DNA of 64,000 bases from Planctomycetota bacterium. GTDB lineage: Bacteria; Planctomycetota; UBA8108; UBA1146; JAJFFE01. Under the pieces are notes generated by a model that did not search any database, was not told the DNA's origin, and saw only the letters and a program-made list of their open reading frames with translations. Shown piece by piece: positions 5,962-62,361 of this stretch. The position numbers and the translations under genes were made by a program. The DNA is taken from contig JBFWWP010000004.1 of the NCBI GenBank assembly GCA_050246115.1, positions 98,521 through 162,520 on the forward strand, read 5' to 3'. Within the stretch, counting starts at the first letter, position 1; each line of letters opens with the position of its first letter.

Positions 5962-6210
5962 GGGAACCTCTCGTGTTGCGTGACCCGTCGCTCCAACCCG
6001 CAAGTACGAAGCCGCTGCTCTCGCGGTAGGCGGCTATCATGAGCACTGCCGCCCACGGCAACCACAGGCTCGTCGGCGGAGCGGCTCGATCCCGGCGGGC
6101 GTGGATCGAAATGGCCGCCCGCGTACCCCGAAATCCGCGATCCTTCGTGGCCGCGCGGTGCTACAACAGTACTCCCGGAGACGACCCTGACTCAACTACG
6201 GAGTTTACCC

Positions 6211-21811: not shown

Positions 21812-24498
21812 TGCTTGCCCTCGTTGGTCAGTGGCGGAGACTCGTCCTCGGCTCCACCCGGGCCCGGCAACGACGCGCTGCGAAGTGCCGGGTGAAAACG
21901 ACGCGCGATCTCGGACTCGTGAAGCACGCGACCACGCCCGTGCCCGGCCCCCCAATGGACGCGTACGGTTTCCGTGCCGGCGCCGGCACGAGCCGGCCCC
22001 CACAGCCAAAGATCGACGGACAGGTTCGGAAGGCGCAGAGAGAGGAGATCGAGCGCGGAAGCGAAGTCTTCCCAGTGTTGGTCGTTGCCACCAGCGACAC
22101 GTCGATCGACGGGGGGCGGCTCCGGCATCGGCACCCACACGACAGTGGGTCGCTCGGGGATTGCCCCCTCAGCCTGGCGTGTGAGCTCTCCCATCGCGAG
22201 CAGCAGCGTGCGCGCGGCTGGGCGATAGACGCTGCCGTGCGAACCACCCGCCCGCAACCGGTAGGCACCCGTCTCCCAGCGCGACTCGTCGATCGCGTCC
22301 GCGGGCGGCGTCGAAGCAGCGGTCGCATCACCGGGCTCGCCCGCGCTCTGCGCCGATCGCAGCAGGCCGCGAACCCAGTCATCGAGCCCCGGCGCCGTGG
22401 CGGGCACCCGGGGTTCGCCGAGCCGGTCCGTCAGGCGGCGTAGGCCGGGGGTCAGCATACCGTCGGCGAGCCAGATCGCGTGGCGAAGGTCCGGCGGGGA
22501 TTCCGCTGCGCGGCGGAGCGGATCGCGGTGCGAAAGCACCCAGCGCGTCGACGCGGAACTCGGCGCGGCGTGGGCTTGGATCTGGGCCAAGGAAACGCTC
22601 GGGTCGGAGGGGAACGTGAAGAGCGTGGCGTGCTCGAGTCGGGCCCACAGCCGCGGGATGCGCGCCGGCTCTCGCAGCAGCTCCCGGACCGGAAACGAAC
22701 ACCACACTTCGACTCGAACCGCGAGCGGTTGGCCGCCTGCGACCGGCCCGCCGCGCGCGTCGTGCGGCAACACCGGCGGTCGCGCGACGAAGCTGCCGAA
22801 GCACTCTTCTTCAATGAATAGCCGAGGATCGGCACTGCCGTCGAAGAGTCGCTTCGTCAGGGCATCGATGGCGTCCTCGGGGAGATCCCGTTCGCCGATC
22901 CAACGCGAGAAGCGCTTCACCCAGATCGCGTCTTGCCCAGGCTCCGGAGGCGGCACGCCGAGCGCGGGACCGTAGGCCAACGTCCGAATCAGGAGCCGTG
23001 CTGCATCCGCGGGCTCCAGTTCCGTGCCCGCGAGTTCGATGAGGCCAAGTTCCTCGTCCGCATCGAGGCGACGACCCAGTAGGGCCACCGCGAGACTGCG
23101 CAGCACCACGTCATAACGGACCGGGCGGGGTTGTGTACGACCCGCCGCAAGCCAATCCTCGAACTCGGCGTCCGCATCGTCATGCGGGATCGGCGCGTTG
23201 GATCTCGCGGACGCTGGCGGTGCCGACTCGCGCGCCGGGTGGGCGCCGACAATGCGCCGGATGGTGCTGCCCCACTCGGCAGGCGAGTCCGGCACGACCC
23301 CGATCCGCAGCGCCTCCGGCAGTCGAAACGCGCCGGATCGCGGCAACGATGATCGCTCGGCGAGCACCCGGCGCGATCGCTCCATCCACAGGTCGGGATC
23401 TCCGCGCAACTCGGCGACGATCTGATCACAGGACGCAGACCGCCACCGCGCCAGTTCGGCGAGCGTGGGCCGGCGACCGAGCAACAGCTCCGTCGTCCGG
23501 CGCAGCTCGCGCAGGCGCTCAACGGGGTACTCGTCCAGCCAGTCCGGAAGAGGCGACGCGATCGAGTGCGGAGTGATCAGTCGCCCGCGGGCCGCGAGCG
23601 CCGCCTCGATTCCCGCGGAGAGCGTGGCGTCGACGGTGAGCGGTAGCGCGCGGGAATGGGCCGCGACGCCGGGGATCTCGGCCAGCCACCAATCCGATCC
23701 GCGTCGCTCGATCCGAGCCCGACTGCGCACGGCCAGAATGTTGCGCTCCCAACGCCCCACTTCGGCGGGGCTACCGGGCAGTAGATCGAGCTGTGCCGTC
23801 GCGAGGTGACAGCCGCCGCCCTCGCAGGTGCGATCCAGTTCGGCGCCGAGCGCGTGCCAGGGAACTCCCACGGCGGTCGACGCCGCCGCCACGGGAGCGG
23901 GCGTCGGCGTTGACGCTGCAGGGCCGACAACTTCGCCGACGGCGTCCGATGTTCCCGTGGGTTCCGCGGGCGTCGGCGTGTAGAGCGCGGGAGTCGGCGC
24001 GGCCTCGCGACGTGGGAAAGCTCCGGCCCACCACAGCGCCACGCCACCGAGCCCACCGCCCAACAGGAAGATGCCGAGCAGGACGTTGCGCTCGGCGCGA
24101 TTCCACAGGGACGTCGCCGAAGCCAGATCTTCAGCGACGCCCGATGCGCGGGGTCCGTCGCTTGCCTCGGCGTTCGCATCGAGAGTCCCCGCGGGCTCCG
24201 GCCCATCGCCACAGACGGTGACCGTCACGTTGCCGAGCGTGAACTCGTCGCCGACCGTGACCTCGAGCGACTTGCACCGGGTCCCTGCGTAACGGATGCC
24301 GTTACGCGACCCGAGATCCTCGAGCCGAAACCTGTCGGTCCCCGCGATGGGTTCGATCGAAGCATGGAGCTTGGAGACGGACGGATCCACGATGCGGATC
24401 GCCGCGCGACGCGAACGACCCAGAATCGCTGGACGGTCGGGAATCGGCACCCGGGCGGGTGACGCATCGTGCGCGGCCCGAGTCAGCAGGTACGGCAT
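21808..24498 (-). CDS. FHA-domain protein with single TM segment and large C-terminal domain of unknown function
   Basis: Trimmed to the ATG at 24498. FHA: 'AILGRSRRAAIRIVDPSVSKLHASIEPIAGTDRFRLEDLGSRNGIRYAG'. TM: 'VLLGIFLLGGGLGGVALWWAGAF'. The remaining ~650 aa have no motif I recognise. Confidence 0.6.
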   Translation of the reverse strand: MPYLLTRAAHDASPARVPIPDRPAILGRSRRAAIRIVDPSVSKLHASIEPIAGTDRFRLEDLGSRNGIRYAGTRCKSLEVTVGDEFTLGNVTVTVCGDGPEPAGTLDANAEASDGPRASGVAEDLASATSLWNRAERNVLLGIFLLGGGLGGVALWWAGAFPRREAAPTPALYTPTPAEPTGTSDAVGEVVGPAASTPTPAPVAAASTAVGVPWHALGAELDRTCEGGGCHLATAQLDLLPGSPAEVGRWERNILAVRSRARIERRGSDWWLAEIPGVAAHSRALPLTVDATLSAGIEAALAARGRLITPHSIASPLPDWLDEYPVERLRELRRTTELLLGRRPTLAELARWRSASCDQIVAELRGDPDLWMERSRRVLAERSSLPRSGAFRLPEALRIGVVPDSPAEWGSTIRRIVGAHPARESAPPASARSNAPIPHDDADAEFEDWLAAGRTQPRPVRYDVVLRSLAVALLGRRLDADEELGLIELAGTELEPADAARLLIRTLAYGPALGVPPPEPGQDAIWVKRFSRWIGERDLPEDAIDALTKRLFDGSADPRLFIEEECFGSFVARPPVLPHDARGGPVAGGQPLAVRVEVWCSFPVRELLREPARIPRLWARLEHATLFTFPSDPSVSLAQIQAHAAPSSASTRWVLSHRDPLRRAAESPPDLRHAIWLADGMLTPGLRRLTDRLGEPRVPATAPGLDDWVRGLLRSAQSAGEPGDATAASTPPADAIDESRWETGAYRLRAGGSHGSVYRPAARTLLLAMGELTRQAEGAIPERPTVVWVPMPEPPPVDRRVAGGNDQHWEDFASALDLLSLRLPNLSVDLWLWGPARAGAGTETVRVHWGAGHGRGRVLHESEIARRFHPALRSASLPGPGGAEDESPPLTNEGKQ

Positions 24499-24826
24499 TC
24501 GAAGAACTCCGCAACCGGCCGGAGGGTGGAACGGCCACCCCATTAGAGAGGTCCGCGACCCCCAATGCAACAGGCAGCACCTCCAGCCGTCCAGCCGGCC
24601 AGCGACCGGGGAGCGCCCGAGGCCACTCGTGGCGTCTTTGCGTCCAGGTGTGTTCCAGCGAGACCGAGGCCGGCGCGAGGGACTCGGAGATGGAGTGCGC
24701 ACTCGTGACGTGGACCCTCAACGCGCGGGAAACATGCACCCCGGGCGATTGACACCGGCGCGGTCCATCGCGGGCCAGAGAGACGCAGCGAGCCCCGTAG
24801 CAAGATCCACCAACGAAAGGGCGACC

Positions 24827-28298: not shown

Positions 28299-30041
28299 CT
28301 ATCGTCCGACCTCGACCCGGCGAGCCGTCACGAAGATGAGCAGGTCGCGCTGCTCGCGGACGCGGGTCTCCCGTCGGAACAAGAAGCCGATGAGCGGCGC
28401 CCGCATCAGCCACGGGATGCCCACGACGCGTGTGCGCATGACATTGCTGCGCAAGCCGCCGAGGACCACCGTCGCGCCTTCGGTGACGACGAGCTGCGTG
28501 TCGAGGTAGCGGGTCTCGATGACGGGCCTGGTGATGGCAGGAGCTTCGACGCCCTGCACGACCGCGCCGCTCGGGATCGTGATCGTGTCCACTTGGTCAC
28601 GAATCACCGGTTGGATGCGCAGTTGCACTTCGTTCGGTCGGGCCCCGGCCGACGGCGTGACGTTCAGCACGATGCCGGTGAAGTTGCGATCGTTCACGAC
28701 CGCAACCAATGCCACGTTGGCGTCCGAAGTACTCAGACCGTCGCGCGACACCACCGTCGTGTCGAACACCGGGCGGTAATCCTCGACATAAGGAAGGTTG
28801 GTGGTGATCGCGATCGTTGCACGCGAGTTATTGACCGATGCGATCGTGGGCGCGGACAAGACCTCCGCCTCGTCCTCGGACTCGAGCGCGCGGAGCAGGG
28901 CCTCGAACCGTGGCTCGCTCAAGATGCCGAGCACCTCCAAGTTGAGTCCAGTGGCAGCACCTGGGATCAAGGGCGCGATACCCACGCGCTGTCCGGTGGC
29001 CGGCGACAGGGACACCATCTCACGATCGTCACCGAGCTGCGCAAACTCGGTCAGGCCGAACTCCACTCCAAGTTCGCGGGCTGCTTCCGCGGACAGCTCC
29101 AGGAAGCGTGCCTCGATCTCGATGAGATCGGGACTGCGCGCGAGGGTATCGAGGCAGCGCTCGATCTGGTCGAGGGACGACGCTTCCGAGCGCACGAAGA
29201 GCAGGTTGTGTCGTCGATCGAGGAACCACGTGGATCCGTCGGGCCAGGGTACGAGCTCCGGCATCCGGGCCAGGAACTTCTCGAGATGAGACACGGGCTC
29301 GACCGCGGAAGGTCCTTCCGCGGGAACTAGCGCTGCACCGCCATCCCCTTCGCTCTCTTGCCGTTGCACGCGGGAGATGAACGACAGCTGACGCAGAGAA
29401 TCGAAGTCATTCGGAAGACTGGCCTGGATCAGCCCGCCCGGCAGGGGATACACGAGCAACGCCAAACGCGCTCCGGGTCGGGGGTGGACGACCAGGAGCC
29501 GACCTTCGAGTTCGAACTCGATCGGAAACAGCTGGCCCAAACGCGTGAGGAGTTCGCCCAGGGGAAGCTGGCTAACGCGGAGGGAGAGCTCGAGGTCGCC
29601 CACCAATCCCTGGTCGACCAGCAGTTCGAAGCCGAGACTATCGGCAAGGTGCACGAGCGCTTCGCCGAGGGGAACGCGGTCGAGACTGAGACTCACCGGT
29701 GTGGTGGCCAACCGCGGGTCCGCGTTCGGCGCGCGCGGGCTCAGGCGGTAGGGCCGCGCGGACTCGGCGGCGGGGCCTGGCGACAGCGACCGGCGCGTCG
29801 GCGCCGGCGCCGGACCGACCGTGACGCCCGGGCGGCGTGGGTCGTCGATCGCCTCTTTCACGGCGCACCCCGCGCTCAGCGTGAGGACGGCGAGCACGCC
29901 CGCCACGAAGGTCGACGCCGTGCGACGATCCACTTCGACGCCGCCGGGCGGAGGGGGCGCCGTGGGCCCACGCACGGAGGCCGCGAGTGGCGCGGCACCG
30001 GCGCGCAGGAAGTCCGGCGTGCGCGCGCTCCATAGCTGCAT
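28299..30041 (-). CDS. Secretin-family outer-membrane channel (GspD/PilQ-type), lipoprotein
   Basis: Trimmed to the ATG at 30041 ('MQLWS...'); the upstream track sequence is R-rich. Lipobox 'LTLSAGC'. Secretin C-domain: 'VQLRIQPVIRDQV...IETRYLDTQLVVTEGATVVLGGLRSNVMRTRVVGIPWLMRAPLIGFLFRRETRVREQRDLLIFVTARRV'. N3-like: 'PDLIEIEARFLEL'. Confidence 0.75.
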   Translation of the reverse strand: MQLWSARTPDFLRAGAAPLAASVRGPTAPPPPGGVEVDRRTASTFVAGVLAVLTLSAGCAVKEAIDDPRRPGVTVGPAPAPTRRSLSPGPAAESARPYRLSPRAPNADPRLATTPVSLSLDRVPLGEALVHLADSLGFELLVDQGLVGDLELSLRVSQLPLGELLTRLGQLFPIEFELEGRLLVVHPRPGARLALLVYPLPGGLIQASLPNDFDSLRQLSFISRVQRQESEGDGGAALVPAEGPSAVEPVSHLEKFLARMPELVPWPDGSTWFLDRRHNLLFVRSEASSLDQIERCLDTLARSPDLIEIEARFLELSAEAARELGVEFGLTEFAQLGDDREMVSLSPATGQRVGIAPLIPGAATGLNLEVLGILSEPRFEALLRALESEDEAEVLSAPTIASVNNSRATIAITTNLPYVEDYRPVFDTTVVSRDGLSTSDANVALVAVVNDRNFTGIVLNVTPSAGARPNEVQLRIQPVIRDQVDTITIPSGAVVQGVEAPAITRPVIETRYLDTQLVVTEGATVVLGGLRSNVMRTRVVGIPWLMRAPLIGFLFRRETRVREQRDLLIFVTARRVEVGR

Positions 30042-30046
30042 GCCTC

Positions 30047-31123
30047 TCACGGTTGCCCCGAGGGTTGGCCGGTGCCGTTCCAGAGCGCGTCGTCCGACAC
30101 GAACACCTCGAGCGGCAACCACTCCACTCGACCGTCCCCGAACAACGCACAGCAACCGCCGCGGTGGCGCGCGTGCGGGCGGCTCGGCAGCGTGGGCTCG
30201 CCCAATCCCGGGACCGGTGAGTCGCTCGCCCAAACGGGCGCGAACCCGCTGCCGCTCGACCCCAACGCCGGGATCCGTGGCGGGTCGACGGTGAAGGAGT
30301 GATTCCCGAGAGCGCCCGCATCGAGGTGACTCGGGGGCTGATACGGCGCGACACCCGTGCCGGCCGAGTCCATCAGCACGACCGTGTGAGCTGGATCCGC
30401 GATCTCGGACGAGCGCACGGGGTAGCGGCGTCGACGGGGCTCTCCGGCCGGACCGTGATCCACGACGCGGGCATCGCCCAGGTACTGGTGGTTGTAGCCG
30501 TAGGCGCCATTGCGTCCAACCGGCCAATGGGCCACCGTCGGACAGCGAAAGACATCGGGAAACACGCGCTGCTCGGCGTCATCCTCCGAAGGCAAGACGC
30601 TGCGTGATGCCACGCCGCTCGCGGGGTCTATCATGGCGCGACCTTGGCCCGAGGAGGAGGCTCCCGGCGGCGCTCCGAGGTACGGCGCCAGACTATGGTA
30701 CCAACGGCGCCGCTCGACCACCCGCCCGGTGGTGTCGGTGACCTCGATCTCGGCCGCCGGATAGTGCCCATGGTCGGCGACGTACTCGGTTACGGCCTGC
30801 CCGATCTGTCGGAGATTCGACAAACAGACAGTACGGTCCGCACGCTCCAACGCCCCACGCAGCGCCGGGACTGCCATCGCACCGAGGACCGCTAGGATCG
30901 TGATCACCACCAACAACTCGGTCAGCGTGAATCCGTGTTCTTGGCCGGTCGGTAACGGGACGGTTCGCCAAGTGCTCGCTGCGCTCGGGATCGACGTCGG
31001 TCCATTCGCGGCGGTTGGGAACGCGGACGATTCAGTCAACTCAGTGGCTCCTTCCCGAGGTCTCTCGGGAGAGGAAGCACGCGGAGGGCCAGCGCGCCGA
31101 GAAGTCACAAGACTCGCGTTCAC
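30047..31123 (-). CDS. Prepilin-type N-terminal cleavage/methylation domain protein with DUF1559 C-terminal domain (PVC-type pseudopilin-like)
   Basis: 'GFTLTELLVVITILAVLGAMAVPAL' class III signal. C-terminal 'GGCCALFGDGRVEWL' resembles the DUF1559 signature. The track start (GTG 31123) gives a 63-aa leader, so the real start is probably further downstream. Immediately upstream of, and co-oriented with, the secretin. Confidence 0.7.
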   Translation of the reverse strand: MNASLVTSRRAGPPRASSPERPREGATELTESSAFPTAANGPTSIPSAASTWRTVPLPTGQEHGFTLTELLVVITILAVLGAMAVPALRGALERADRTVCLSNLRQIGQAVTEYVADHGHYPAAEIEVTDTTGRVVERRRWYHSLAPYLGAPPGASSSGQGRAMIDPASGVASRSVLPSEDDAEQRVFPDVFRCPTVAHWPVGRNGAYGYNHQYLGDARVVDHGPAGEPRRRRYPVRSSEIADPAHTVVLMDSAGTGVAPYQPPSHLDAGALGNHSFTVDPPRIPALGSSGSGFAPVWASDSPVPGLGEPTLPSRPHARHRGGCCALFGDGRVEWLPLEVFVSDDALWNGTGQPSGQP

Positions 31124-51389: not shown

Positions 51390-52493
51390 TTACCACGAGA
51401 GCTTGATCAACCACAGCAGCGAGAACGTCTTTCGCTCCGGAGTGCGTTTGTAGCCAATGAGGTTGAGCAATGCGCCCCAAGAACGGGTCTGACGATGCTC
51501 CGTGCCGAACACGTCGGAGTTGCGGTCGTAGTCGAACAGGATTCCCCAGATCAAATCCAAGTCCGTGTACTCGGCATTGCTCTTGTAATCGCACAGGAAC
51601 GGCAGCTTGAACGAGACGTGGGTGGGCAGGCTCCGCAGCGGTCGGAAGCTGTCCTGCACGATCTTGGGACCGCGACGAATGGCGACTGCGAAGGAATCGC
51701 CCGCGAGGGCGGTCGCCTCCAAACGGCTGACAAAGGCCTCGGCGTCGCTCGTCGCCTCTGCGCCGGTCGCAACCAGTACATCCCCAACGCGCACTCGCGA
51801 GTAGAACGCCGGGGTCCCGCCCCGAATCGACATGACGATGACGCCGGACTCGTCGGGTTCGACCAGGTACTGCCGGAGGCGACCATCTAGGCTACCAAAA
51901 GTGAAACCGGCGTGCGGATCCACCACCGTGCCGAGGCGGATGGGCTCGTAGTCGTCGGTGCTCACGGATTCCGTCGTCAGCTGGACCTCGAGCGGGAAGG
52001 TGCGAGGCCCCCGTTGGATGTTGAGGAGCACTGGCTGATCGAGGGCATGATTGCGAACCAGGTGGCTCAGGCGTCCGGGGTGACCGAGTGGCTCCCCGTC
52101 GAGCTCGAGGATCACGTCTTCGGCCACGAGGCCGGCGCGAGCCGCAGGGCTCTCCGCCTCGACCGCGGTGACGCGTAGCCCGACGAACGGTTCGGCGCCG
52201 GCCGCGGGACGCTCTTCGACAGCCGTCGTGCGGACCCCCAAGAACGGAACCGCACTCACGAGGGTTCGACGCAGGGTGATCTCATGATCGCCCGTCACTT
52301 GGTAGTAGAGCGCGGTCAACTGTTTCCCCTCGGGGACCGGAACTCCGGGTCGAACCGGAATCTGGATCTGCCGGTCACTCGGCCCCCGCGGGAAGCGGAG
52401 CCCACCCGTCCCTTCGCACAAGGACGACTGAAACAGGCCGCATAACATCACCAGTACCGCGATAGCCGTGGATCTCGGGAGCAAGTTCTTCAT
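51390..52493 (-). CDS. Secreted protein with two PDZ domains (no protease domain)
   Basis: Trimmed to 'MKNLLPRSTAIAVLVMLCGLF' (signal peptide). PDZ-like 'GLRVTAVEAESPAARAGLVAEDVILELDGEPL' and 'GVIVMSIRGGTPAFYSRVRVGDVLVATGAE'. No GDSGG-type serine-protease motif. Confidence 0.65.
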   Translation of the reverse strand: MKNLLPRSTAIAVLVMLCGLFQSSLCEGTGGLRFPRGPSDRQIQIPVRPGVPVPEGKQLTALYYQVTGDHEITLRRTLVSAVPFLGVRTTAVEERPAAGAEPFVGLRVTAVEAESPAARAGLVAEDVILELDGEPLGHPGRLSHLVRNHALDQPVLLNIQRGPRTFPLEVQLTTESVSTDDYEPIRLGTVVDPHAGFTFGSLDGRLRQYLVEPDESGVIVMSIRGGTPAFYSRVRVGDVLVATGAEATSDAEAFVSRLEATALAGDSFAVAIRRGPKIVQDSFRPLRSLPTHVSFKLPFLCDYKSNAEYTDLDLIWGILFDYDRNSDVFGTEHRQTRSWGALLNLIGYKRTPERKTFSLLWLIKLSW

Positions 52494-52506
52494 GGCGTCA
52501 CTTTCA

Positions 52507-53685
52507 TTAGGAGCGGCCGCGCCGCACTTTGTTCGCTGGCTGTTCGTCCCACACGCGGCGATATGCCGCCACTCGTCGCTGATCGGCATCGAGTTCCGCC
52601 GGTGGCTCCTCGCGTCCGAACCAGTTGCCCATCACGCCGAGCAGGCCCGCACCCGCAGGTGTCGCGGGAACGGACACGTCCCACGGGGCAAAGAACGCAT
52701 CGAGTTCGGCGAGCGCGAGACGACGCACTTCGGGTTGACCATCGTCGAAGAGTTCGAACAGGGTAGTCACCGCCCGCGGGTGCCCCCAATCGACCTCGAG
52801 GCGATAGCGCCCCTTCTCGCGATGCACGGCGCACGCCTTGCCCGCCGCCAAGTCGGTCACGGGCGTCGTCCCCGGCGGCGACGCTACGGTCGGCGCAGAC
52901 ACCGCGAGCGCCCGGTCATCACGACCTGAATCCGCCGGCCGGTCGGGACCTTCTCGGGTCGGTCGCTCCGGCTCGGGGGGGCGCGCCGCGAGGGTGAACT
53001 CGAGGGCGGCGAAGCCTCGCTCGAGATCGAGCAAACGAGCTTCAAGGGGACTCAGGTCCACCGTCGCCGGGCTCCCCCCTCGGGCCGCGACCTCGGCGCG
53101 GACGGCGAGAAGTTCACGCCGAACATCCAACAGCCGACGCTCTTGGTCCTCCGATTCGCGCGCCAGCTCGTCGGCGAGCGCACCCGTGCGTGCACGAATC
53201 GACTCCACGGCGGTCCGGAGTTCAGCCAGCCGGTCGCGGCCGTCCCGCGTGGCCACGGAGACGCCGTTCAGCTGCTCGTCGGCCTGCTCGATCCACCGTT
53301 CGATCCGAGTCGTTTCCTGGCTCCGGGCGACGGTGAGCGCGCGGAGCTGCTCCTCGAGACCCCACCGGCGCCATTCCGAATGAAGCAGCAACAGGGCCAG
53401 GGCGATCCCGGCGGCAGCCGCGGCGCGCCGGGGCCAAGCGGGGCCAACCGACACGGCACCGGAGCTCACCGATCGCGCGATCACCTGCTCGGTGAACGCG
53501 GCGGGCACCGGCGCCCGCGGCAAGGCGCGCAACTCGCTCAAGGCCGACTGGAAGTCGAGCCAGCGCGTGCGGCACGGCTCACACGCCGCCAAGTGTTTGC
53601 GGACGTCTTCGGCTTCGACCACGTCGAGGTCTTCGTCGTGAAGAGCCGACAATCGCTCGATCACCGCTTGGCAAGTACTGCTCAT
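52507..53685 (-). CDS. Putative anti-sigma factor (zf-HC2-like N-terminus, TM segment, extended coiled-coil periplasmic region)
   Basis: 'HLAACEPCRTRW' HC2-type motif. TM 'AAAGIALALLLL'. Immediately downstream of, and overlapping by 4 bp with, the ECF sigma gene. Confidence 0.6.
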   Translation of the reverse strand: MSSTCQAVIERLSALHDEDLDVVEAEDVRKHLAACEPCRTRWLDFQSALSELRALPRAPVPAAFTEQVIARSVSSGAVSVGPAWPRRAAAAAGIALALLLLHSEWRRWGLEEQLRALTVARSQETTRIERWIEQADEQLNGVSVATRDGRDRLAELRTAVESIRARTGALADELARESEDQERRLLDVRRELLAVRAEVAARGGSPATVDLSPLEARLLDLERGFAALEFTLAARPPEPERPTREGPDRPADSGRDDRALAVSAPTVASPPGTTPVTDLAAGKACAVHREKGRYRLEVDWGHPRAVTTLFELFDDGQPEVRRLALAELDAFFAPWDVSVPATPAGAGLLGVMGNWFGREEPPAELDADQRRVAAYRRVWDEQPANKVRRGRS

Positions 53686-54302
53686 GCTTCCTCCCGTCGC
53701 TCGTTACCGCCGCGCAGCGCGCGGTGGTAAAGCTCCTCGAACTGCTTGCGCGCTCGATGGAGTCGACTTTTCACCGTTCCGACTTCGCAGCTCAGAACCT
53801 CGGCCATTTCCTCGTAGGACAGTCCTTCGTAGTCCCGCAGCAGCATTAGAGTCCGGGGTTGGTCGCCCAACTGGGCAAGCACTGCCTCGACCAATGCCCG
53901 CACCTCCTCGCGCTCGATCGACTCCGCCGGCGCCTCCGGGGTCCAGCTCGCCGGACCGCTCGGATCTTGGCGGTAGCGGTCCAGGTGGACGATCCGACTC
54001 TTGTGGGCGCGGAGATGGTCGCGGGCAGCGTTCACGGCGACCGCCAAGATCCAGGCGGTCGCGCTCCCGTCGGGGCGGAAACTCGTGGCCCGTTGGAGCA
54101 CTCGCAGGAAGGTATCCTGCGCTAGGTCCAAGGCCGCCTCTCCATCGCGGACGATCCGGAGGATGAGATTCACGACGCGATGCTGATACCGAGCGACGAG
54201 TTCCTCGAAGCACGCGGGGGTGCCCGTGGCGACCCCGACGAGGCACCGCTCGTCGCTCCAGGTCGCGGCCGCCGTGGGTCTCGATCGCTCGACACGTCCG
54301 GG
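53682..54302 (-). CDS. ECF-family RNA polymerase sigma factor (sigma-70 regions 2 and 4)
   Basis: 'FEELVARYQHRVVNLILRIVRDGEAALDLAQDTFLRV', 'LSYEEMAEVLSCEVGTVKSRLHRARK'. Track ORF trimmed to the GTG at 54302, which has GGAGGAG 9 nt upstream. No ATG/GTG/TTG lies closer to the region-2 onset. Confidence 0.8.
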   Translation of the reverse strand, partial: PGRVERSRPTAAATWSDERCLVGVATGTPACFEELVARYQHRVVNLILRIVRDGEAALDLAQDTFLRVLQRATSFRPDGSATAWILAVAVNAARDHLRAHKSRIVHLDRYRQDPSGPASWTPEAPAESIEREEVRALVEAVLAQLGDQPRTLMLLRDYEGLSYEEMAEVLSCEVGTVKSRLHRARKQFEELYHRALRGGNERREEA

Positions 54303-54336
54303 CACCAACACCTTCTCCTCCCCCCGCACCCCGCCT

Positions 54337-54407
54337 CGATCTACGGCCGCCGCACGCCGTTGTTCCCGAGTTTCCGGCCAAAAGTGACCGCCCAAAAGTG
54401 ACCGCCC
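54337..54407 (-). promoter_or_regulatory. Candidate autoregulated ECF-type promoter (GGGAAC-N16-CGTA) with a tandem 15-bp direct repeat 'CCAAAAGTGACCGCC' x2 just upstream of the -35
   Basis: On the minus strand: 'GGGAACaacggcgtgcggcggcCGTAg' (plus coordinates 54342-54367), ~40 nt upstream of the GTG 54302. Direct repeats at 54378-54392 and 54393-54407. Confidence 0.3.
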
Positions 54408-54621
54408 CGAAGAAACGTTCGCCCGGATCCCGGGGGCGACCTGGCTCCGCCGCCGATCGGCAGACCGCGGCGCCGCCCCCGCTCCAGCCCGGGTAGCGTG
54501 CGCGGAGCAATCGGCTAGAATACCCATCCCGCGGTCGCCGTGTTCGCTCGGCGCGCCGCGACGGGAGTCGCCTCGCGAGCAACCCTAGGCAACGGCCGCA
54601 GCGCAGTAGAGAGGAGAGCCG

Positions 54622-55344: not shown

Positions 55345-57399
55345 ATGGAAGCGGTGATCTCGGTCGCGTCGACCTGCGTCCTGCACCTGCCGCTGCTGCT
55401 CGCCTCGCGTCGATTCAACCGTTGCTTCTTCCCCGCCGAGTGTCGCGCTCAGGAATGGCTGCAGATCTTCTTCGTGGCCTGCGTCATCTGGCGCCTCGAG
55501 ACATTGCTCCTGCACGCGTGCGGGGCGGTCCATTGGCCGGCGGTGGTCGGCGCCCATGTCTTGATCTGCGCCGCGTGCAGGATCGCTACTTCGCGAACCG
55601 TCACTGCCCCTCCGGGCGCGGCCACACCGGCACCCCAGAGCGGTGGACCGACGACGTTCGTGGCTGCGGGCTGGATCGTGCTGCTGGCGGCTCTCGCCCT
55701 CCACCGCGTCGTCTTTCTCCCGGATCCTTACGACGCACTCACCTACCACCTCATGCTCCCGGTGCACTGGCTGCAGACGGGAAGCCTTCAACTCCTTGCG
55801 ACACCGTTCGGCGACGCCTCGCCTGGCTACACCCCGGAAGCGGTCGAGGGGTTCTTCCTCGCGCTGATGCTCCCCAGCGGACACGACTCCTTGGCACGCG
55901 TCGGTCAGTTGCCGCTGGTGCTCGCCGCCGCCTACTTGGTGTTCGACCTGACGCGACGTGAGCGTCGAGAGTCGCCGACTTGGGTGGCGGCAGTCGCCGC
56001 GAGCGCGTTCCTGCTGCTGCCGGATCTGCTGACTCAAGGAACGAACTCCATGGCCGACGTCGGTGCCGCGGCGTTCTTCCTCGGTGCTTGCCAACAGCTC
56101 ACACGTTACCGTGACGAAGGAAGCGCGGCGCGCGCAGTCCTCGGCGGCGCACTCGCAGGTCTCTTCGTCGCGAGTCGCTTCCCGGCCTTGCTCGCGTTCC
56201 CCCTCCTCGTAGCGCCATGGGTCGTGACGCTGCGCCGCAACAAGCGCCACGCGGCGCTGTTCCTCGCGTCGACCCTGGCGACCGGCGCATTTCCATACCT
56301 TCGCAACTGGATGCTCACCGGCAATCCGGTCTATCCGCTCGCCGTCGACTTCGTGGCCGGACTCGGGTTTCCTGGGCTCTTCACCCGCGACGCCATGACC
56401 CAGTCGATCTTCCACCTCGAAGGTCAAAAGCTGCTCGACTACTACCTCTACTACTTGCGCGCGGGCCTCGGATGGTGCGCCGCCGGAGTGATTGCGCCGC
56501 TCCTGTTGTACCGACGCCCAACGACGTTGGGGTACGCACTCGGCGGGGCAGTGCTCCTCTGCTTGCAGCTCTTCGTCATGCCCTTCAATGCCAATGGTCG
56601 GTTCATCTTCCCCGCCTGGGCCTGGCTGGTCATCGCGGCCGCGAGCGCGCTCGGCGCCTCCCGGGGTGGCCGCGTGATTTTGGCCATCGGCTGCGGTGCG
56701 CTCGCGTGCGACACCCTGTGGGTGTTCCCGCTCTGGGCCATGAGTCGCGGGCACACCCTCTCGTTGGTCGCCGCAGGAGTCTTCCTTCTGGGGCTCAACA
56801 CCGCCTGGCTCCTTGCGCGGCTGTCGCCCCGGGCCCGCGTCACGAGTTGGGCGACTGCCGCGACGCTCTGGCTCGTCGCCCTAGGGGTCGCCGGGGTGAA
56901 GCGTGAAGCACGACTCGATCGCATCTGGGCGCGAGATCATCGCTACGCCCCCTTTCGCGACGGCTGGCGCACGGTACGCATGGATCTCCCGGCATTGCTA
57001 GCAGCCGACGGCTCGGCTCGACCGCTGCGAATCGCCTATACCGGACTCAACCTGCCCTACCCGCTGACGGGCAGCGCTCTCGCGAACCACGTCACTACCG
57101 TTCCCCTCGACGGCGGCCCGTCCGGTCAGCTCCCCCACGAGCAACGGCTGCGCCTACCCGACTACGACCTCAACCGACACACCGTGGTACTGGCACTCGA
57201 CCGCATGCGACCGAACCGCGCTGCATGGCGTCAGGCCCTCACACGCGACGCGATCGACGTCCTCGCCGTCTACGTGCAACCGGGCCACGACGTTCCCATC
57301 GAGTATCGTTGGGCAACGGCGGACCCCGCGAGCTTCGAACCCATCGACACCGGCGCCGCCGAAGGACAGTTGCTGCTGTTTCGCGTGCGGGAGCCGTAG
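55345..57399 (+). CDS. Polytopic membrane protein, GT-C-fold glycosyltransferase-like (mannosyl/arabinosyl-transferase-type topology)
   Basis: 684 aa, >10 predicted TM helices with large loops ('FLPDPYDALTYHLMLPVHW', 'LAFPLLVAPWVVTL'). Architecture resembles the PMT/ArnT/DUF2029 classes. No precise family assignable by eye. Confidence 0.45.
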   Translation: MEAVISVASTCVLHLPLLLASRRFNRCFFPAECRAQEWLQIFFVACVIWRLETLLLHACGAVHWPAVVGAHVLICAACRIATSRTVTAPPGAATPAPQSGGPTTFVAAGWIVLLAALALHRVVFLPDPYDALTYHLMLPVHWLQTGSLQLLATPFGDASPGYTPEAVEGFFLALMLPSGHDSLARVGQLPLVLAAAYLVFDLTRRERRESPTWVAAVAASAFLLLPDLLTQGTNSMADVGAAAFFLGACQQLTRYRDEGSAARAVLGGALAGLFVASRFPALLAFPLLVAPWVVTLRRNKRHAALFLASTLATGAFPYLRNWMLTGNPVYPLAVDFVAGLGFPGLFTRDAMTQSIFHLEGQKLLDYYLYYLRAGLGWCAAGVIAPLLLYRRPTTLGYALGGAVLLCLQLFVMPFNANGRFIFPAWAWLVIAAASALGASRGGRVILAIGCGALACDTLWVFPLWAMSRGHTLSLVAAGVFLLGLNTAWLLARLSPRARVTSWATAATLWLVALGVAGVKREARLDRIWARDHRYAPFRDGWRTVRMDLPALLAADGSARPLRIAYTGLNLPYPLTGSALANHVTTVPLDGGPSGQLPHEQRLRLPDYDLNRHTVVLALDRMRPNRAAWRQALTRDAIDVLAVYVQPGHDVPIEYRWATADPASFEPIDTGAAEGQLLLFRVREP

Positions 57400-57410: not shown

Positions 57411-57597
57411 CTAAGGAGTCGCCCAAGAGTAACTTCGACATCTTGCCGTCGATTTGGGTCAGATTCGGCCGATCCGGAAAGCTCGGAACCGGAGGCGTAG
57501 CCTTAGTTCCGGTGAGGATTTCGAGGTCTTCGGATCGGTCGAAGATGGCCCGGAGCGACGAGCAAGAGGGTGAAGTTATTCTTGGGCGACTCCTAAC
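57411..57597. mobile_element. MITE-like element, full-length copy, between convergent genes
   Basis: 'ctaaggagtcgcccaagagtaacttc...gaagttattcttgggcgactcctaacc' with near-perfect ~25-bp terminal inverted repeats. Interior ~95% identical to 9184-9371. Confidence 0.6.
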
Positions 57598-57751
57598 CCA
57601 CTCGCGACCTCCCGCAGTCGTGTCCCGAACTCGGGCCCCGCTTGCTCGACGACTCAACAGAAAAAGGGTCGGACCCCTCGTGGGATCCGACCCTTCGAAC
57701 ACTCGTACGCACTAGGGACTCATCGGTCCGAGCCCCTCACGCGCACACCCA

Positions 57752-60589
57752 CTACGGACACGGCGGGAAGCTGTTGCAACCCAGACCATCGTTGGTCGGA
57801 TCCGGTCCGCAGATCGGGAACGGCGCCGGCGGCGGAGCTCCGCCACTGAACAGGAACGCGAGGTTCCAGATCGCATCGGCGATGTTCAGATTGCCGTCGT
57901 CGTTCGAGTCGCACGCATCGTCGCACACCGGCGGAGCGGGCACGGTGCCACCGGGGAACAGGAACCCGAGCAATCGGATCCCGTCGGCGATGTCGACCAC
58001 GCCGTCCGCGTTGCAGTCGCCACGAATCAGAGCCTGCACGCCAACAACGGCTTGCGCGGCGGACAACGTGGGATCGTGCTGCGCGGACATGCCTGGATCG
58101 TGGAAACCCGACTGGACCGGGGTATGCACCGCGGAGTGGATCGGGTTGTGGGCCGCGGAGGCCATCGGATCGTGAACCACGGAGAACGACGGATCATGGA
58201 TCGCAGAGTCACCAGCGCTGTGCATGCTGGTCCAGAACGGATCGTGGATCGTCGAAGTCAGCGGCCCGTGCAGCGCACTCTCACCGGGGATGTGAACGCT
58301 CGAGACGCCCGGATTGTGGGTCGCGGACAAGCCCGGATCATGCTGCGCCGAGTTGAACGGCGAGTGTACCGACGACGTGAGCGGATCGTGGTTCGCGGAC
58401 AGCGCCGCGTCGTGGACCACCGACTGCGCGGGGTCGTGCTGCGCCGAAGCCGCCGGATCGTGCATGCCGGACCAGTGAGGATCGTGCACGGTCGAGGTCA
58501 GCGGATTGTGCAACACGCTGTTGGCTGCGTCGTGAACCGACGAGATCGCCGGGTCGTGCGTACCCGAGACCGTCGGGTCGTGCTGATTCGAATTGAACGG
58601 CGAGTGCACGACGCTGATGGACGGATCGTGCTGCGTCGACGTGGTCGCGTCGTGAACGTTGGAGCGGGCCGGGTCGTGAACGACCGACTGCGTGGGATCG
58701 TGCTGCATCGACCAGAACGGGTCGTGCGTGTTCGATCCCAGTGGGTCGTGCTGACCCGACAAGGTCGGCACGTGCACCGTCGAGACCGCCGGGTCGTGGA
58801 TGTCGGACGCCAACGGCCGGTGGACTCCGGACATCAGCGGCGCGTGCACACCGGACACCAACGGATCGTGGTGGTTCGAGTTGAACGGCGAGTGCACCGC
58901 ACTCACCACGGGTACGTGGACTTGCGACAGTCCCGGCTCGTGGATGTTGGTGGTCACCGGGTTGTGGAACTGCGACAACGAGGGGTCGTGTTGCGACGAC
59001 CAGAACGGGTCGTGCACCGCCGAGTTGAACGGGTTGTGGTTGCTGCTGATCCCCGGCTCGTGGATCGGCGAGATCGTCGGGTTGTGGAACGACGACACGC
59101 TCGGACTATGCGTCACCGACTGATCCGGAGCATGGAAGATCGAGTTCAGCACCGGGTGCGAGCCCGACACGAGCGGATCGTGCTGCGACGACAGGGTCGG
59201 AGCATGGAACGGCGACAGCGCCGGGTCGTGTTGGCTCGAGACGAACGGATCGTGTTGAGCCGACATGACCGGAGAGTGCACGGTCGACACTACGGGGTCG
59301 TGCTGCGCGGTCAGGGCCGGGTCGTGCACCGCCGACAAGTTGGGATTGTGCGTCGACGAATCCGCGGCGGTGTGCATGCCGGTCCAGTGAGGATCGTGGA
59401 CGAGCGAGGTCGATGCAATGTGCTGAGAGCTCGGCCCCGGCAAGTGGACGCCGGACACGAACGGGTCGTGGCCGGACCCCGACAAGTTGGGGTTGTGGGC
59501 CGAGAAGGTCGGGTCGTGGCCCGTGGCCGTCAGCATGGGATCGTGCAAGGGCGACAGCGTCGCGTCGTGCTGGCTGGTCACCACTGGGTCGTGGATCGGC
59601 GAGATCGACGGATCGTGCATCGAGGTCCACAACGGATCATGCAGCTGCGAGAACTCCGGCGGGTGAGCTTGGCTCATGCCGGGATCATGCAACGGCGACA
59701 AGCCCGGCACGTGCACCTGCGACACGAACGGCTCGTGCTGGTCGGAGCGAATCGGCGCGTGCATGACCGAAGTCAGCGGCTGGTGCGTGTTGGTCATGGT
59801 CGGATCGTGGACGATCGACTGAGCGGGGTCGTGGGTGCTGGAGATCGCCGTGTCGTGCATGGACGACCAGAACGGGTCGTGGATGTCCGACGTCAGCGGG
59901 TTGTGCAGGCTGCTGCTGGCCGGATCGTGGATCGAGGAGGTCACGGGATCGTGAGTGCCGGACGTCGCGGCGTCGTGCTGCGCCGAGACCATCGGTGCGT
60001 GTACCGATGAGTCGAACGGCTGGTGCACCATCGACTGGTTCGGGTTGTGCAGGATCGACGCCGCGGGTTCGTGGATCGCGGACTGGGCTGCCGTGTGCAT
60101 GCCGGTCCAGTGGGGATCGTGCACATCCGAGGTCAACGGGTTGTGGAGCGTGCTGCTGCCGGGGTCGTGCACGGCGGAGATCGCCGGATCGTGGCCGGTC
60201 GACACGCTCGGGTCGTGCTGCTGGGAGGTCAGCGGTGAGTGGACCGCAGAGTCCAGCGGCGCGTGAATCGGCGACAGGTCTGGATCGTGCAGAATCGACA
60301 CCGCCGGGTCGTGCAACGCCGAGTTCGTGGCCGTGTGCATGCCCGACCAAACCACGTCATGGATGGTCGACGTCAGGGGGTTGTGCAGGGCGCTCTCGCC
60401 CGGGATGTGGACGACCGAAAGCGCTGGGTCGTGCTGAACCGACATCGCCGGATCGTGCTGCGCCGAAGCGCCGGGGTCGTGCAACACCGACGCCACTGGG
60501 TCGTGCGTGGTTTGTGCAAACGAATGCGAGGGCACGCATGCGGCAAACGCGCATACGACTCCCGCGATCACGAGACACTTGCGAAGCAT
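57752..60589 (-). CDS. Secreted protein consisting of ~100 tandem octapeptide repeats (consensus H-D-P-x-x-S-x-x) followed by a C-terminal dockerin module + Cys-rich tail
   Basis: Trimmed to 'MLRKCLVIAGVVCAFAACVPSHSFAQ' (signal peptide) at 60589. Residues ~29-850: 'HDPVASVL HDPGASAQ HDPAMSVQ HDPALSVV ...'. C-terminus: 'LIRGDCNADGVVDIADGIRLLGFLFPGGTVPAPPVCDDACDSNDDGNLNIADAIWNLAFLFSGGAPPPAPFPICGPDPTNDGLGCNSFPPCP'. Confidence 0.8.
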   Translation of the reverse strand: MLRKCLVIAGVVCAFAACVPSHSFAQTTHDPVASVLHDPGASAQHDPAMSVQHDPALSVVHIPGESALHNPLTSTIHDVVWSGMHTATNSALHDPAVSILHDPDLSPIHAPLDSAVHSPLTSQQHDPSVSTGHDPAISAVHDPGSSTLHNPLTSDVHDPHWTGMHTAAQSAIHEPAASILHNPNQSMVHQPFDSSVHAPMVSAQHDAATSGTHDPVTSSIHDPASSSLHNPLTSDIHDPFWSSMHDTAISSTHDPAQSIVHDPTMTNTHQPLTSVMHAPIRSDQHEPFVSQVHVPGLSPLHDPGMSQAHPPEFSQLHDPLWTSMHDPSISPIHDPVVTSQHDATLSPLHDPMLTATGHDPTFSAHNPNLSGSGHDPFVSGVHLPGPSSQHIASTSLVHDPHWTGMHTAADSSTHNPNLSAVHDPALTAQHDPVVSTVHSPVMSAQHDPFVSSQHDPALSPFHAPTLSSQHDPLVSGSHPVLNSIFHAPDQSVTHSPSVSSFHNPTISPIHEPGISSNHNPFNSAVHDPFWSSQHDPSLSQFHNPVTTNIHEPGLSQVHVPVVSAVHSPFNSNHHDPLVSGVHAPLMSGVHRPLASDIHDPAVSTVHVPTLSGQHDPLGSNTHDPFWSMQHDPTQSVVHDPARSNVHDATTSTQHDPSISVVHSPFNSNQHDPTVSGTHDPAISSVHDAANSVLHNPLTSTVHDPHWSGMHDPAASAQHDPAQSVVHDAALSANHDPLTSSVHSPFNSAQHDPGLSATHNPGVSSVHIPGESALHGPLTSTIHDPFWTSMHSAGDSAIHDPSFSVVHDPMASAAHNPIHSAVHTPVQSGFHDPGMSAQHDPTLSAAQAVVGVQALIRGDCNADGVVDIADGIRLLGFLFPGGTVPAPPVCDDACDSNDDGNLNIADAIWNLAFLFSGGAPPPAPFPICGPDPTNDGLGCNSFPPCP
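58045..60505. repeat. 24-bp in-frame tandem repeat array (coding for the HDPxxSxx octads), ~100 units, with a 240-bp super-period
   Basis: On the plus strand 'ggatcgtg' (reverse complement of CAC-GAT-CC = His-Asp-Pro) recurs every 24 nt. The Trp-containing octads (HDPxW[ST][GS]M) recur about every 10 units. Confidence 0.85.
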
Positions 60590-60664
60590 GGAATACCTCC
60601 TCCTCTTTCCTCGTGAACCGCGGCGACGTCCGACAAGGACGAGCGCGCGAGGTCCACGCATCGG

Positions 60665-61936
60665 TTACTGTTCGCCATCCGCTCCGGGTGAAACCGGAGC
60701 ACTGTCTTCGGCGTCCGGCCGCGTTTCCGGGGCCTGACTCTTGGCCTCGTAGCGCGGAATCCCGCGACGCGAGACGTACTCGTAGAAGTCTTCGGCGGCC
60801 TGGGCACGGTCCAAGAAGGTCACGAGGTCGGACCGGGCCAAGTAGCTGTAGTAGCACGCGAGCGCCACACGCATCGGTCGCACTTGATCGGTGTAGTAAC
60901 CGAAGCGGTCGATTCGCCCGCGGAGCGATGGGGCGGCCCGCTGCATGTACTCGCTGATCTTCACCTCATCCGCGTAGTTGTCGGCCAGCTGATCGAACGG
61001 ACCATCATAGTAGTCGTTGCGGTTGGAATTCAGGCGGCGGATCGCCAGCAGCACCTTACGGTTGCCGTGAGCCGCGTCGAGCCAGAAGGCGAAACCGCTG
61101 CGCTGACCGATCAGCAGCTCCGGCCGCTCGGCATCGGGAACGAGGACGTCAGGAACCCCGGGCTCCTCGTTCAACACCCAGAAGAAGTACTCCTTCTTGT
61201 CGTGGAACAAGAGGAAGAACTGGTACCCGGATTCGTCGAAGGTGCGCTCGATGAAGACTTCGTCGGGGCCGAGTTCGAAGCGCTTCGGCGGCACTTGCGG
61301 CAGCGGGTACAAGTGAAAGATGACCTGCTTCCCCCGGTACTTGACGACCCAGTCCAACGGGGTGAGCGACTCGAGGGAGAGCCCTTCTTTCTGCGTGAAG
61401 AACTTCGAGTTGCTGAGGCCCGTCTTCGGTCCCCGCAGTTGCGGAAACTCCACGTACTCGAAGTAGCCGAACGAGACCTCGCCCTCGTCGCGCTTGCCGG
61501 CGGGAATACGAATGTTGCCCCAGATCTGACGGCCGCGAACGTTGAGGATGAAGTAGTAGTAGTTCTCGGACGGGTAGACGACGACCTCGTCGGGCAGGCG
61601 CGAGAAAACATGCCAGAACATCGCGTCCGCGTCGTAGAGGTTGAGCCCCTGGGTGTACAGCCCCTCGATGAAGCGTTGGTTGAGTAGCATGTAGGAGGTT
61701 GGCGATTCGGTGGGCGGCGTCGCGGATGGCGGCGCAGGAGCGGCCGCACCGGCATTCGGTGGAGGATCGGCCGAGAGGATGGCGGCTGGCGGAAGCACGC
61801 CACTCGGGGGCGCCATCGAAGTGCCCGGGCCCGCGCACCCCGATGCAACGGCAGCGGACGCGAGTACCGCGCACATCGCTGCCCGAAGTCCGGCGTGGGA
61901 AGTCGGGCGAGGCAGAAGCCAGGCTGGGAGTCGCAT
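60665..61936 (-). CDS. Hypothetical lipoprotein with Ala/Pro-rich linker and conserved-looking globular domain
   Basis: Trimmed to 'MRLPAWLLPRPTSHAGLRAAMCAVLASAAVASGC' (lipobox-like ASGC) at 61936. Tyr/Phe/Trp-rich globular region ('YPSENYYYFILNVRGRQIWGNIRIP', 'YQFFLLFHDKKEYFFWVLNEEPG'). Confidence 0.5.
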   Translation of the reverse strand: MRLPAWLLPRPTSHAGLRAAMCAVLASAAVASGCAGPGTSMAPPSGVLPPAAILSADPPPNAGAAAPAPPSATPPTESPTSYMLLNQRFIEGLYTQGLNLYDADAMFWHVFSRLPDEVVVYPSENYYYFILNVRGRQIWGNIRIPAGKRDEGEVSFGYFEYVEFPQLRGPKTGLSNSKFFTQKEGLSLESLTPLDWVVKYRGKQVIFHLYPLPQVPPKRFELGPDEVFIERTFDESGYQFFLLFHDKKEYFFWVLNEEPGVPDVLVPDAERPELLIGQRSGFAFWLDAAHGNRKVLLAIRRLNSNRNDYYDGPFDQLADNYADEVKISEYMQRAAPSLRGRIDRFGYYTDQVRPMRVALACYYSYLARSDLVTFLDRAQAAEDFYEYVSRRGIPRYEAKSQAPETRPDAEDSAPVSPGADGEQ

Positions 61937-62361
61937 CGTAGGCACGAAGACACCGATCATGGATGGCCACCTCCCGCAAGCGTGAGTGAGCACGCCAACG
62001 GAGATGGGCGCCACACTCCCGTGTGTTCGAAACTCAACGTGGACTCGCATCGCCCAAATGCGAGAACTCAACTTCTAACTCGTCAAACAGTCGGGCGCAA
62101 CCGAAAAGTTTGTCGTCGCTGCCGCAGGGCGTAGCCCGTGTCGAGCAAGAAGCTGGCCGCTCGGACGGGCGAGTCTGTGCGGGGAAAGGGGGAGGCGGTT
62201 CTCGGAAACGCGAAGGTGTGCCGCGCAGCGCCGTTCCTCGGGGCACCGTGAACGGAGCAGAGCTCGGACCTTGGAGACCCGACTGCACGAGGCCAAAATC
62301 AACAGCGAATTCGCAAGCAACTCTAGTTCGCGCTTGGCGCTACGAGCGCAGCCTTGGCGAC

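Follow-up and report, generated by a model that had tools for sequence, protein, structure and literature searches.

A histidine octad-repeat protein and its conserved exported partner in a Planctomycetota bacterium

The window analyzed here is a 64,000-nucleotide stretch of DNA from a Planctomycetota bacterium (assembly GCA_050246115.1, contig JBFWWP010000004.1, positions 98,521 to 162,520 of the forward strand). It encodes an exported protein that consists almost entirely of His-containing octapeptide repeats and, beside it, an exported lipoprotein whose gene is referred to below as the partner gene. Neither the repeat nor the partner fits a known family, and together they appear to make up a two-gene module that has not been described before. 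Ser-rich and Ser-Asp adhesins are similar to it in that a long exported repeat, every unit of which contains an invariant Ser, is encoded next to a dedicated accessory gene. In the staphylococcal SD-repeat proteins the dedicated modifiers, SdgA and SdgB, are cytoplasmic glycosyltransferases of known folds, whereas the partner described here is exported and has no recognizable fold. The SPRR proteins of the mammalian cornified envelope contain Cys-, Lys- and Gln-rich Pro repeats that are cross-linked by transglutaminase; they share with the present array a Pro-containing tandem repeat of eight residues but differ from it in composition, the invariant residues of the array being His and Ser. Dockerin-bearing non-cellulosomal proteins of Planctomycetota have the same type of Cys-flanked C-terminal dockerin-like module as the repeat protein but carry enzyme or binding domains, whereas here the cargo consists of repeats only.

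HxsA of the HXS anti-phage system (TIGR03979) is a periplasmic protein with five His-Xaa-Ser repeats and a peptidoglycan-binding domain that undergoes maturation by radical S-adenosylmethionine (radical-SAM) enzymes (PMC13128918). Like the repeat protein it is exported and has short repeats with conserved His and Ser; it depends, as the repeat protein would in the reading preferred below, on co-encoded proteins, and some relatives of the repeat protein also have a peptidoglycan-binding domain. It differs in that its maturation is cytoplasmic and involves two radical-SAM enzymes, whereas the array has approximately 100 H-x4-[ST] units, an exported partner and no sequence match to HxsA. The prion octarepeat, (PHGGGWGQ)n, is also a tandem repeat of eight residues, lies in a flexible exported region and has a single His per unit; it provides a precedent for one Cu or Zn site per octad or per few octads (PMC5722314). 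It is eukaryotic, has 4-5 copies, binds metal through the Gly amides that follow the His and has no homology to the array, which has Pro at +2 from the His, an invariant Ser/Thr and 101 copies. Searches of the literature for bacterial octapeptide repeats that contain His yielded only prion papers and unrelated ones.

The repeat gene, the partner gene and their linkage

Conservation of the gene pair extends over at least four bacterial phyla, and the partner gene, which was overlooked in the first-pass annotation of this DNA, is the strongest clue to function. Judged from sequence comparisons, the array would be a client or substrate of the partner in the cell envelope, a reading to which we assign a probability of about 0.5. 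The features of the pair are as follows.

57752-60589, minus strand: octad-repeat coding sequence, 945 residues from the Met at 60589, from the translated open reading frame (ORF)
60515-60589, minus strand: signal peptide MLRKCLVIAGVVCAFAACVPSHSFA, followed by QT; Sec type I, read by eye and conserved in the orthologue
58055-60505, minus strand: array of 101 octads, H-[D]-[P]-x-phi-[ST]-x-phi (phi, hydrophobic), residues 53-869, cut in register
57755-58027, minus strand: Cys-flanked dockerin type I-like module with two D-x-N-x-D-G-x-x-D-I-A-D loops, ending CNSFPPCP
60665-61936, minus strand: partner gene, an exported lipoprotein (lipobox ASGC) of approximately 423 residues, from the ORF and its homologues
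60731-61693, minus strand: conserved partner domain (YPSENYYYF ... WGNIR ... FDESG ... NDYYDGPFDQLADNY ... RGRIDxxGYY)

The stop codon of the partner gene is 75 nucleotides upstream of the repeat gene on the same strand; its start is ambiguous (ATG at 61936 or 61960), and the ORF extends to a TTG at 62071. A word-indexed search identified 476 homologues of the partner with approximately 50-60% identity, all of them labeled hypothetical. An alignment of 52 sequences has 41 invariant columns that include 10 Asp/Glu and 5 Tyr and neither His nor Cys. Most members of the partner family begin with a signal peptide and a lipobox. A strict lipobox is present in 28 of 49 homologues, with several more close to it, and in each case it is followed by a Pro/Ala/Thr linker. 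No Pfam match was obtained for any of 50 homologues, NCBIfam contained no relative, and a profile search of PDB sequences with the partner gave nothing. The structure model of the partner is confident and matches no solved fold.

Partner homologues flank H-x4-[ST] repeat genes in all 10 loci first examined, which are from Planctomycetota, Verrucomicrobiota, Chloroflexota and Alphaproteobacteria. Searches that started from the repeat led to loci L001, L002, L003 (Limisphaerales) and L017 (Acidimangrovimonas), where the repeat gene adjoins a partner homologue of 36-58% identity; those that started from the partner led to L006, L010 (Chloroflexi TSY), L012, L014 and L016, where an H-x4-S repeat gene is within 0.1-5 kb. 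L017 is from the cultured Acidimangrovimonas pyrenivorans (GCA_042643245.1), in which the partner gene is downstream of the one for the repeat protein P0006. The Chloroflexota carriers of the pair include a sponge symbiont. A scan of metagenomes with the partner profile gave at least 551 loci. Because a strict period-8 scan undercounted repeat genes (17 of the 80 retrieved loci), the density of the core motif was used instead (at least five H-x4-[ST] per 80 residues in six frames); in the 64-kb window this test fires once, on the octad-repeat gene. By this measure a motif-dense ORF is present in 43 of the 80 retrieved partner loci, in 11 of the 18 whose flanks are both 2 kb or longer and in six of the eight for which they are 5 kb or longer. 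In one metagenomic locus the two genes are fused: a single ORF (L097:3376-5031, plus strand) comprises a signal peptide, the partner domain and 14 H-x-x-G-V-T-F-P-P units. Nearest neighbors among the partner sequences share the same class of unit length in 28 of 36 cases, a value that was reached by none of 2000 permutations.

The mechanical ORF of the repeat gene (57752-60661, minus strand) reaches an ATG at 60661 and would give 969 residues. A start at its Met25, position 60589, agrees with the orthologue in L006 (946 residues, MLRKCL...) and with an independent Logan gene call in L005. The signal peptide, assigned by reading the sequence without a predictor, also contains a lipobox-like FAAC. 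Besides the 101 in-register octads, the array contains one additional Gly (residue 381) and one degenerate unit without His. Position 1 is His in 101 of 101 octads and position 6 is Ser in 92 and Thr in the other nine; position 2 is Asp in 56 of 101, position 3 is Pro in 88 of 101, and positions 5 and 8 are mostly hydrophobic. There are no Lys, Cys or Tyr residues in the array, only three Arg and seven Glu, and 4% Gln. Self-identity of the protein is 0.40 at a lag of eight residues as compared with approximately 0.04 at other lags. A super-period of 80 residues (10 octads) is marked by Trp-containing units, HDPxW[ST]xM, each preceded by HNPLTSD[IV], and arrays from Planctomycetota, Verrucomicrobiota and Chloroflexota have such a Trp unit at intervals of 5 or 10 (also in L014, L003, L010 and P0009). 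The first-pass annotation had described an exported, nearly all-repeat protein with a dockerin-type C terminus and approximately 100 octads that have His at position 1 and Ser or Thr at position 6; its coordinates coincide with the present gene model and the in-register count bears it out.

The C-terminal module matches the dockerin pattern D-x-[ND]-x-D-G-...-D and, by reading, has duplicated segments of a Ca-binding loop and a helix, GDCNADGVVDIADGIRLLGFLF and CDSNDDGNLNIADAIWNLAFLF. Against Pfam Dockerin_1 (PF00404) the full-length protein scores 14.2 bits and the isolated module 16.3 bits, both below the cut-off of 22.9 bits; homologous modules reach the cut-off, with 22.9 bits in P0136 (68% identical), 109.6 in P0028 and 148.8 in P0010. 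The only PDB sequences matched by the repeat protein are the dockerins 2y3n_B (E = 0.013) and 3ul4_B. At E ≤ 1e-10 the repeat protein has matches in over 11,000 representative proteins, mostly through this module as judged from the top 150. Among the scanned ORFs of the window there is no cohesin, and no search for one was made across the genome. P0010 (874 residues) contains seven or eight tandem Cys-flanked modules of this type together with bacterial TSP3 repeats and might act as a scaffold-like counterpart in carriers of the module.

The repeat was taken in the first-pass annotation to be no described family, and none was found that fits it. The only Pfam model above its cut-off is Cornifin/SPRR (PF02389), with 77.3 bits against 34.8 over eight stretches (105.5 bits for the L014 repeat protein), a match that we reject as an artefact of period-8 prolines in a bacterial array that has no Cys or Lys. 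An NCBIfam scan of the repeat protein, with the HxsA model included, gave nothing relevant. In PADLOC, the model PDLC03396 (REase_II, type II nicking endonuclease) matches residues 532-620 with an E-value of 1.8e-22; this is also rejected as a repeat artefact, the model presumably including a repeat-bearing seed sequence, and no other defense-family match was obtained with PADLOC. Proteins of this kind are thus liable to be labeled "Cornifin (SPRR) family" or "type II nicking endonuclease" in annotation.

Age, selection and relatives of the array

The array is real and not an artefact of assembly, since an independent Logan contig (L005) is 100% identical over positions 57567-62343 of the window (4,777 bp), which covers the whole repeat gene, since none of the 101 units and none of their His residues is lost in an orthologue, and since the copies have diverged at the DNA level. 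The DNA units are on average 53% identical, the longest DNA repeats (60 nucleotides or more) are at most 74% identical, and the Ser codons of the array are drawn from both TCN and AGY. The orthologue (946 residues) is syntenic in three further assemblies, L006-L008, and is 82% identical to the window protein, with a single one-residue gap outside the array. His is identical in 101 of 101 units and Ser/Thr in 100 of 101; at positions 2-8, 41-51% of the identical residues are differently coded as compared with 12% at the His position, and the "variable" positions of the octad are 66-76% identical. The ratio of nonsynonymous to synonymous substitution rates (dN/dS) is 0.116 for the array (dS 1.08), 0.107 for the partner gene and 0.045 for SerA, the dS of the array and the partner being approximately 1.1-1.3. 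The array is thus constrained like a folded domain, with purifying selection acting unit by unit. It does not collapse when re-assembled, and the number of units is the same in these lineages. The collapsed assembly that the first-pass annotation named as a possible refutation and the copy-number variation for which it proposed a check are therefore not supported, and the His positions, whose loss in orthologues it also named, are conserved throughout.

More distant relatives were sought with word-indexed and exhaustive HMMER searches, which gave 25,476 matches; the top-scoring ones mostly share only the dockerin module, and the repeat is present in approximately 20 of the best. The array occurs in several contexts. 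(i) L014 has 1,411 residues with approximately 160 units and the same dockerin-type module, and L003, a protein of 2,414 residues from a Limisphaerales metagenome-assembled genome, has approximately 270 units. (ii) In P0001-4, P0019, P0045 and P0071, the repeat is combined with an unannotated C-terminal domain of approximately 250 residues. (iii) In P0005, P0006, P0011, P0037, P0121 and P0126, from Rhodobacterales and relatives, a large N-terminal domain and PG_binding_1 accompany the array. (iv) Other proteins combine arrays with further domains: P0008 has a HEFGH metalloprotease-like domain, vWA and two arrays of approximately 70 units, P0015 is a subtilisin of 2,719 residues with an array and belongs to a cluster of 25 members, and P0046 is a GT-C-like membrane protein with an array.

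The region of approximately 250 residues that follows the array in the Chloroflexota-like members (L012:6767-7480) is unannotated, takes the place of the dockerin and contains a twice-repeated motif, F.GxSG ... RF(D/N)xATQxWxSF. The C termini of L003 (L003:10900-11535) and P0008 have in common an acidic D-x-D-x-D-G segment and a β-rich domain (...FYYR[IV][IV][IV]E) without a Pfam match, which would be another lineage-specific anchor.

In 21 relatives, pairs of His that are eight residues apart have Ser/Thr at position 6 in 96-100% of units. Asp2 and Pro3 are replaceable, as in the HRPRGSIV units of P0121, and the units of the 21 relatives carry net charges between -1.3 and +2.3. The length of the unit also varies, partner-linked arrays having units of 6+7, 7+9, 8, 8+9, 9+11, 10 and 12 residues and the overall range being 6 to 13. 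Ser/Thr is found at +5 from 90-100% of the His residues in nearly all arrays of at least 100 residues, and at no other offset; L017 (83%) and L097 (70%) have lower values. The regions were chosen by the H-x4-[ST] motif, but all His residues inside them were counted. Only H-x4-[ST] is constant across the relatives, Asp2 and Pro3 being lineage preferences. The "mostly Asp-Pro" character that the first-pass annotation gave to positions 2 and 3 holds for the window protein, more for Pro3 than for Asp2, but not as a defining motif of the repeat, and its suggestion that the polymer might be designed for fragmentation at labile Asp-Pro bonds is not supported, given the replacement of these residues and the range of charge. 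A fixed spacing of His and Ser/Thr combined with a variable period suggests a motif for recognition or reaction rather than a solenoid of fixed pitch.

Candidate functions of the pair

In the reading that we prefer, the array as a client or substrate of the partner, the functional unit would be a hexapeptide with an imidazole and a hydroxyl group five residues apart and a hydrophobic residue before the hydroxyl; in the window protein such cores are spaced by two residues to give octads. Both proteins carry export signals, and the partner domain would be tethered to the membrane through its flexible linker. After export, the partner would dock on the H-x4-[ST] units or process them covalently, one at a time, through a conserved site that is rich in carboxylates and tyrosines. 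The outcome would be a long multivalent array on display in the cell envelope, held by an anchor that differs between lineages: the dockerin here, the peptidoglycan-binding domain in Rhodobacterales and other C-terminal domains elsewhere. The strict retention of His and Ser/Thr at a dN/dS of approximately 0.1 suggests a chemical or recognition event at every unit. The presence of one partner gene per 100-280 units and the enzyme-like conservation of the partner lean towards catalysis over docking, the evidence at hand being compatible with both. Binding of metal through the approximately 100 imidazoles is plausible as a downstream property of the array. The repeat rule is among the strictest seen in bacterial proteins, His and Ser/Thr being kept over about 100-280 units, and the action of the partner on H-x4-[ST] could reveal a new mechanism of envelope-polymer formation or protein maturation; a programmable metal- or pH-responsive biomaterial is a possible outcome of understanding the pair.

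Several observations weigh against this reading. In seven of the 18 well-flanked partner loci there is no repeat gene nearby, so that the two genes need not be linked, or the client gene lies elsewhere. The tendency of partner clades to follow unit length may reflect common vertical descent of the two genes rather than co-adaptation. The conserved Trp super-period of 5 or 10 units hints at a higher-order arrangement that the client model does not explain. The AlphaFold2 prediction for residues 53-292, which has a predicted local distance difference test score (pLDDT) of 31, no strands and no regular structure, was based on an alignment of 10 rows, made up of in-register blocks and homologues, and a failure with so shallow an alignment does not prove that the array is unstructured. 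Finally, the partner has no recognizable catalytic or binding fold, and the proposal that it acts on the units draws solely on linkage, the fusion and conservation.

A more specific proposal is that the partner founds a new class of extracytoplasmic enzyme, cofactor-free or dependent only on metal, that covalently processes every unit, for example by formation of a His-Ser derived cross-link, by O-linked modification or by cleavage, and that the ordered Ser-His(-Asp) sites of the modified polymer bind metals or template minerals. We regard this as tentative, with odds well below even; if true, it would represent a post-export system of protein maturation unrelated to any known one.

The array might instead be an autonomous surface polymer of high metal-binding or mineral-nucleating capacity, as the first-pass annotation suggested; imidazoles, helped by neighboring Asp, would chelate Zn, Ni, Cu or Co, and the partner would be a metallochaperone at most, or irrelevant. 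The invariance of His in every unit and in all relatives, the export and apparent surface docking of the protein and the Cu- and Zn-binding prion octarepeat, a precedent for one His per octad, are all consistent with this, and in L001 a CsoR-type metal-sensing repressor (Trns_repr_metal) is encoded 3 kb from the pair. Chelation does not, however, explain a Ser/Thr at +5 whose invariance equals that of His, and whole lineages have Arg or Lys in place of Asp2, with the range of net charge given above. No metal transporter, metal regulator or metal riboswitch was consistently found near the loci examined, nor does this model account for a partner that keeps 50-60% identity between phyla and whose invariant residues include neither His nor Cys. 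We consider an autonomous metal polymer to be unlikely, to about the same degree as the new enzyme class.

A regular fiber or β-solenoid with an ice-binding, ice-nucleating or mineral-templating role, built of coils of at least two octads each with His and Ser stacked in ladders, is less probable again. It would account for the strict periodicity, for purifying selection even at the "variable" positions and for a Trp unit every 5 or 10 octads across phyla. Its difficulties are the AlphaFold model, with its low pLDDT and absence of strands, a Pro in every eight residues and unit lengths of 6 to 13 among lineages with a fixed spacing of His to Ser, which a fixed pitch would not tolerate; the model and the variable unit length also tell against the first-pass picture of one imidazole on each turn of a regular solenoid. 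A 16-residue coil was considered and rejected, Trp-unit spacings of 40 as well as 80, 96 and 128 residues, hence odd (5) and even (10) numbers of octads, following no even/odd rule. LbR_Ice_bind (PF21300), the β-roll of grass antifreeze proteins, has no match in the window protein, and no β-roll is predicted in the AlphaFold model from its shallow alignment. In favor of the solenoid, two relatives with Gly/Ala-rich variants of the unit (HDAALSGA...) touch this Pfam model, P0002 (residues 210-299) with 30.7 bits and P0003 with 22.6 bits against a cut-off of 30, a similarity that is probably compositional.

That the pair is a periplasmic anti-phage barrier analogous to HxsA is very improbable. 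Among named bacterial proteins, HxsA alone was found to be defined by His/Ser repeats; it is periplasmic with a peptidoglycan-binding domain (PMC13128918), and P0005 and P0006 join PG_binding_1 to H-x4-S units. However, no radical-SAM genes (HxsB, HxsC, HxsD) were found next to any of the loci examined, and the NCBIfam HxsA model misses the window protein and matches only the peptidoglycan-binding part of P0006 (27 bits against a cut-off of 121), so that assignment to the HxsA family was rejected. The array has approximately 100 copies of H-x4-S as compared with five of HxS, PADLOC gave only the repeat artefact, and the genes around the pair are of a housekeeping type (SerA, SecA, PurF) and not a defense island. 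Equally improbable is a functionally inert stalk or spacer of low complexity that links the signal peptide to the dockerin, for which the lack of a predicted fold and the occurrence of similar arrays on proteases and other enzymes, possibly as linkers, might speak, given that the protein has no other domain to be spaced, that the dN/dS is 0.12 with the exact unit count, His (101 of 101) and Ser/Thr (100 of 101) all kept, and that there is a dedicated conserved partner gene and a natural fusion.

The operon and surrounding genes

From their arrangement, the partner and repeat genes appear to form one transcription unit, which would end at the following feature.

57663-57696, minus strand: intrinsic-terminator-like hairpin, 15-bp stem with 9 GC, then TTTTTCTGTT; 56 nucleotides past the repeat stop codon

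A scan for terminators gave a total of four terminator-like sites, a number not above the shuffled expectation of 2.5, and this hairpin is the only one with a long GC-rich stem. A search for riboswitches and other RNAs around the operon gave nothing relevant. By the identity of SecA to a protein from a metagenome-assembled genome in NCBI, the window is of Planctomycetota origin. The neighbors of the repeat gene are the partner gene, SerA, a membrane protein and an ECF (extracytoplasmic function) sigma factor. The membrane protein is a polytopic protein of 684 residues (55345-57399, plus strand) that is convergent with the repeat gene and has 678 residues in L006-L008. It has no Pfam match and a weak match to NCBIfam LIC_10190 (E = 3.7e-5), and it is not conserved at more distant loci. 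Its candidacy as a repeat-linked glycosyltransferase was rejected, since it has no similarity to the GT-C-like N terminus of P0046 and is kept only in the close relative.

Other envelope genes of the window, all on the minus strand, encode a secretin (28299-30527), a protein of 964 residues with an FHA domain (21808-24702) and a protein of 1,067 residues with GSDH and PKD domains (2800-6003); they have no evident link to the repeat-partner pair. Closer to it, at a distance of 3-6 kb and also on the minus strand, are the genes for the ECF sigma factor (53682-54527), a zf-HC2 anti-sigma factor (52507-53685) and a PDZ protein (51390-52589). The synteny of these three genes is repeated in L006, and in L014 an ECF sigma/anti-sigma pair directly adjoins the repeat and partner genes; a regulatory link of the sigma and anti-sigma factors to the pair is possible.

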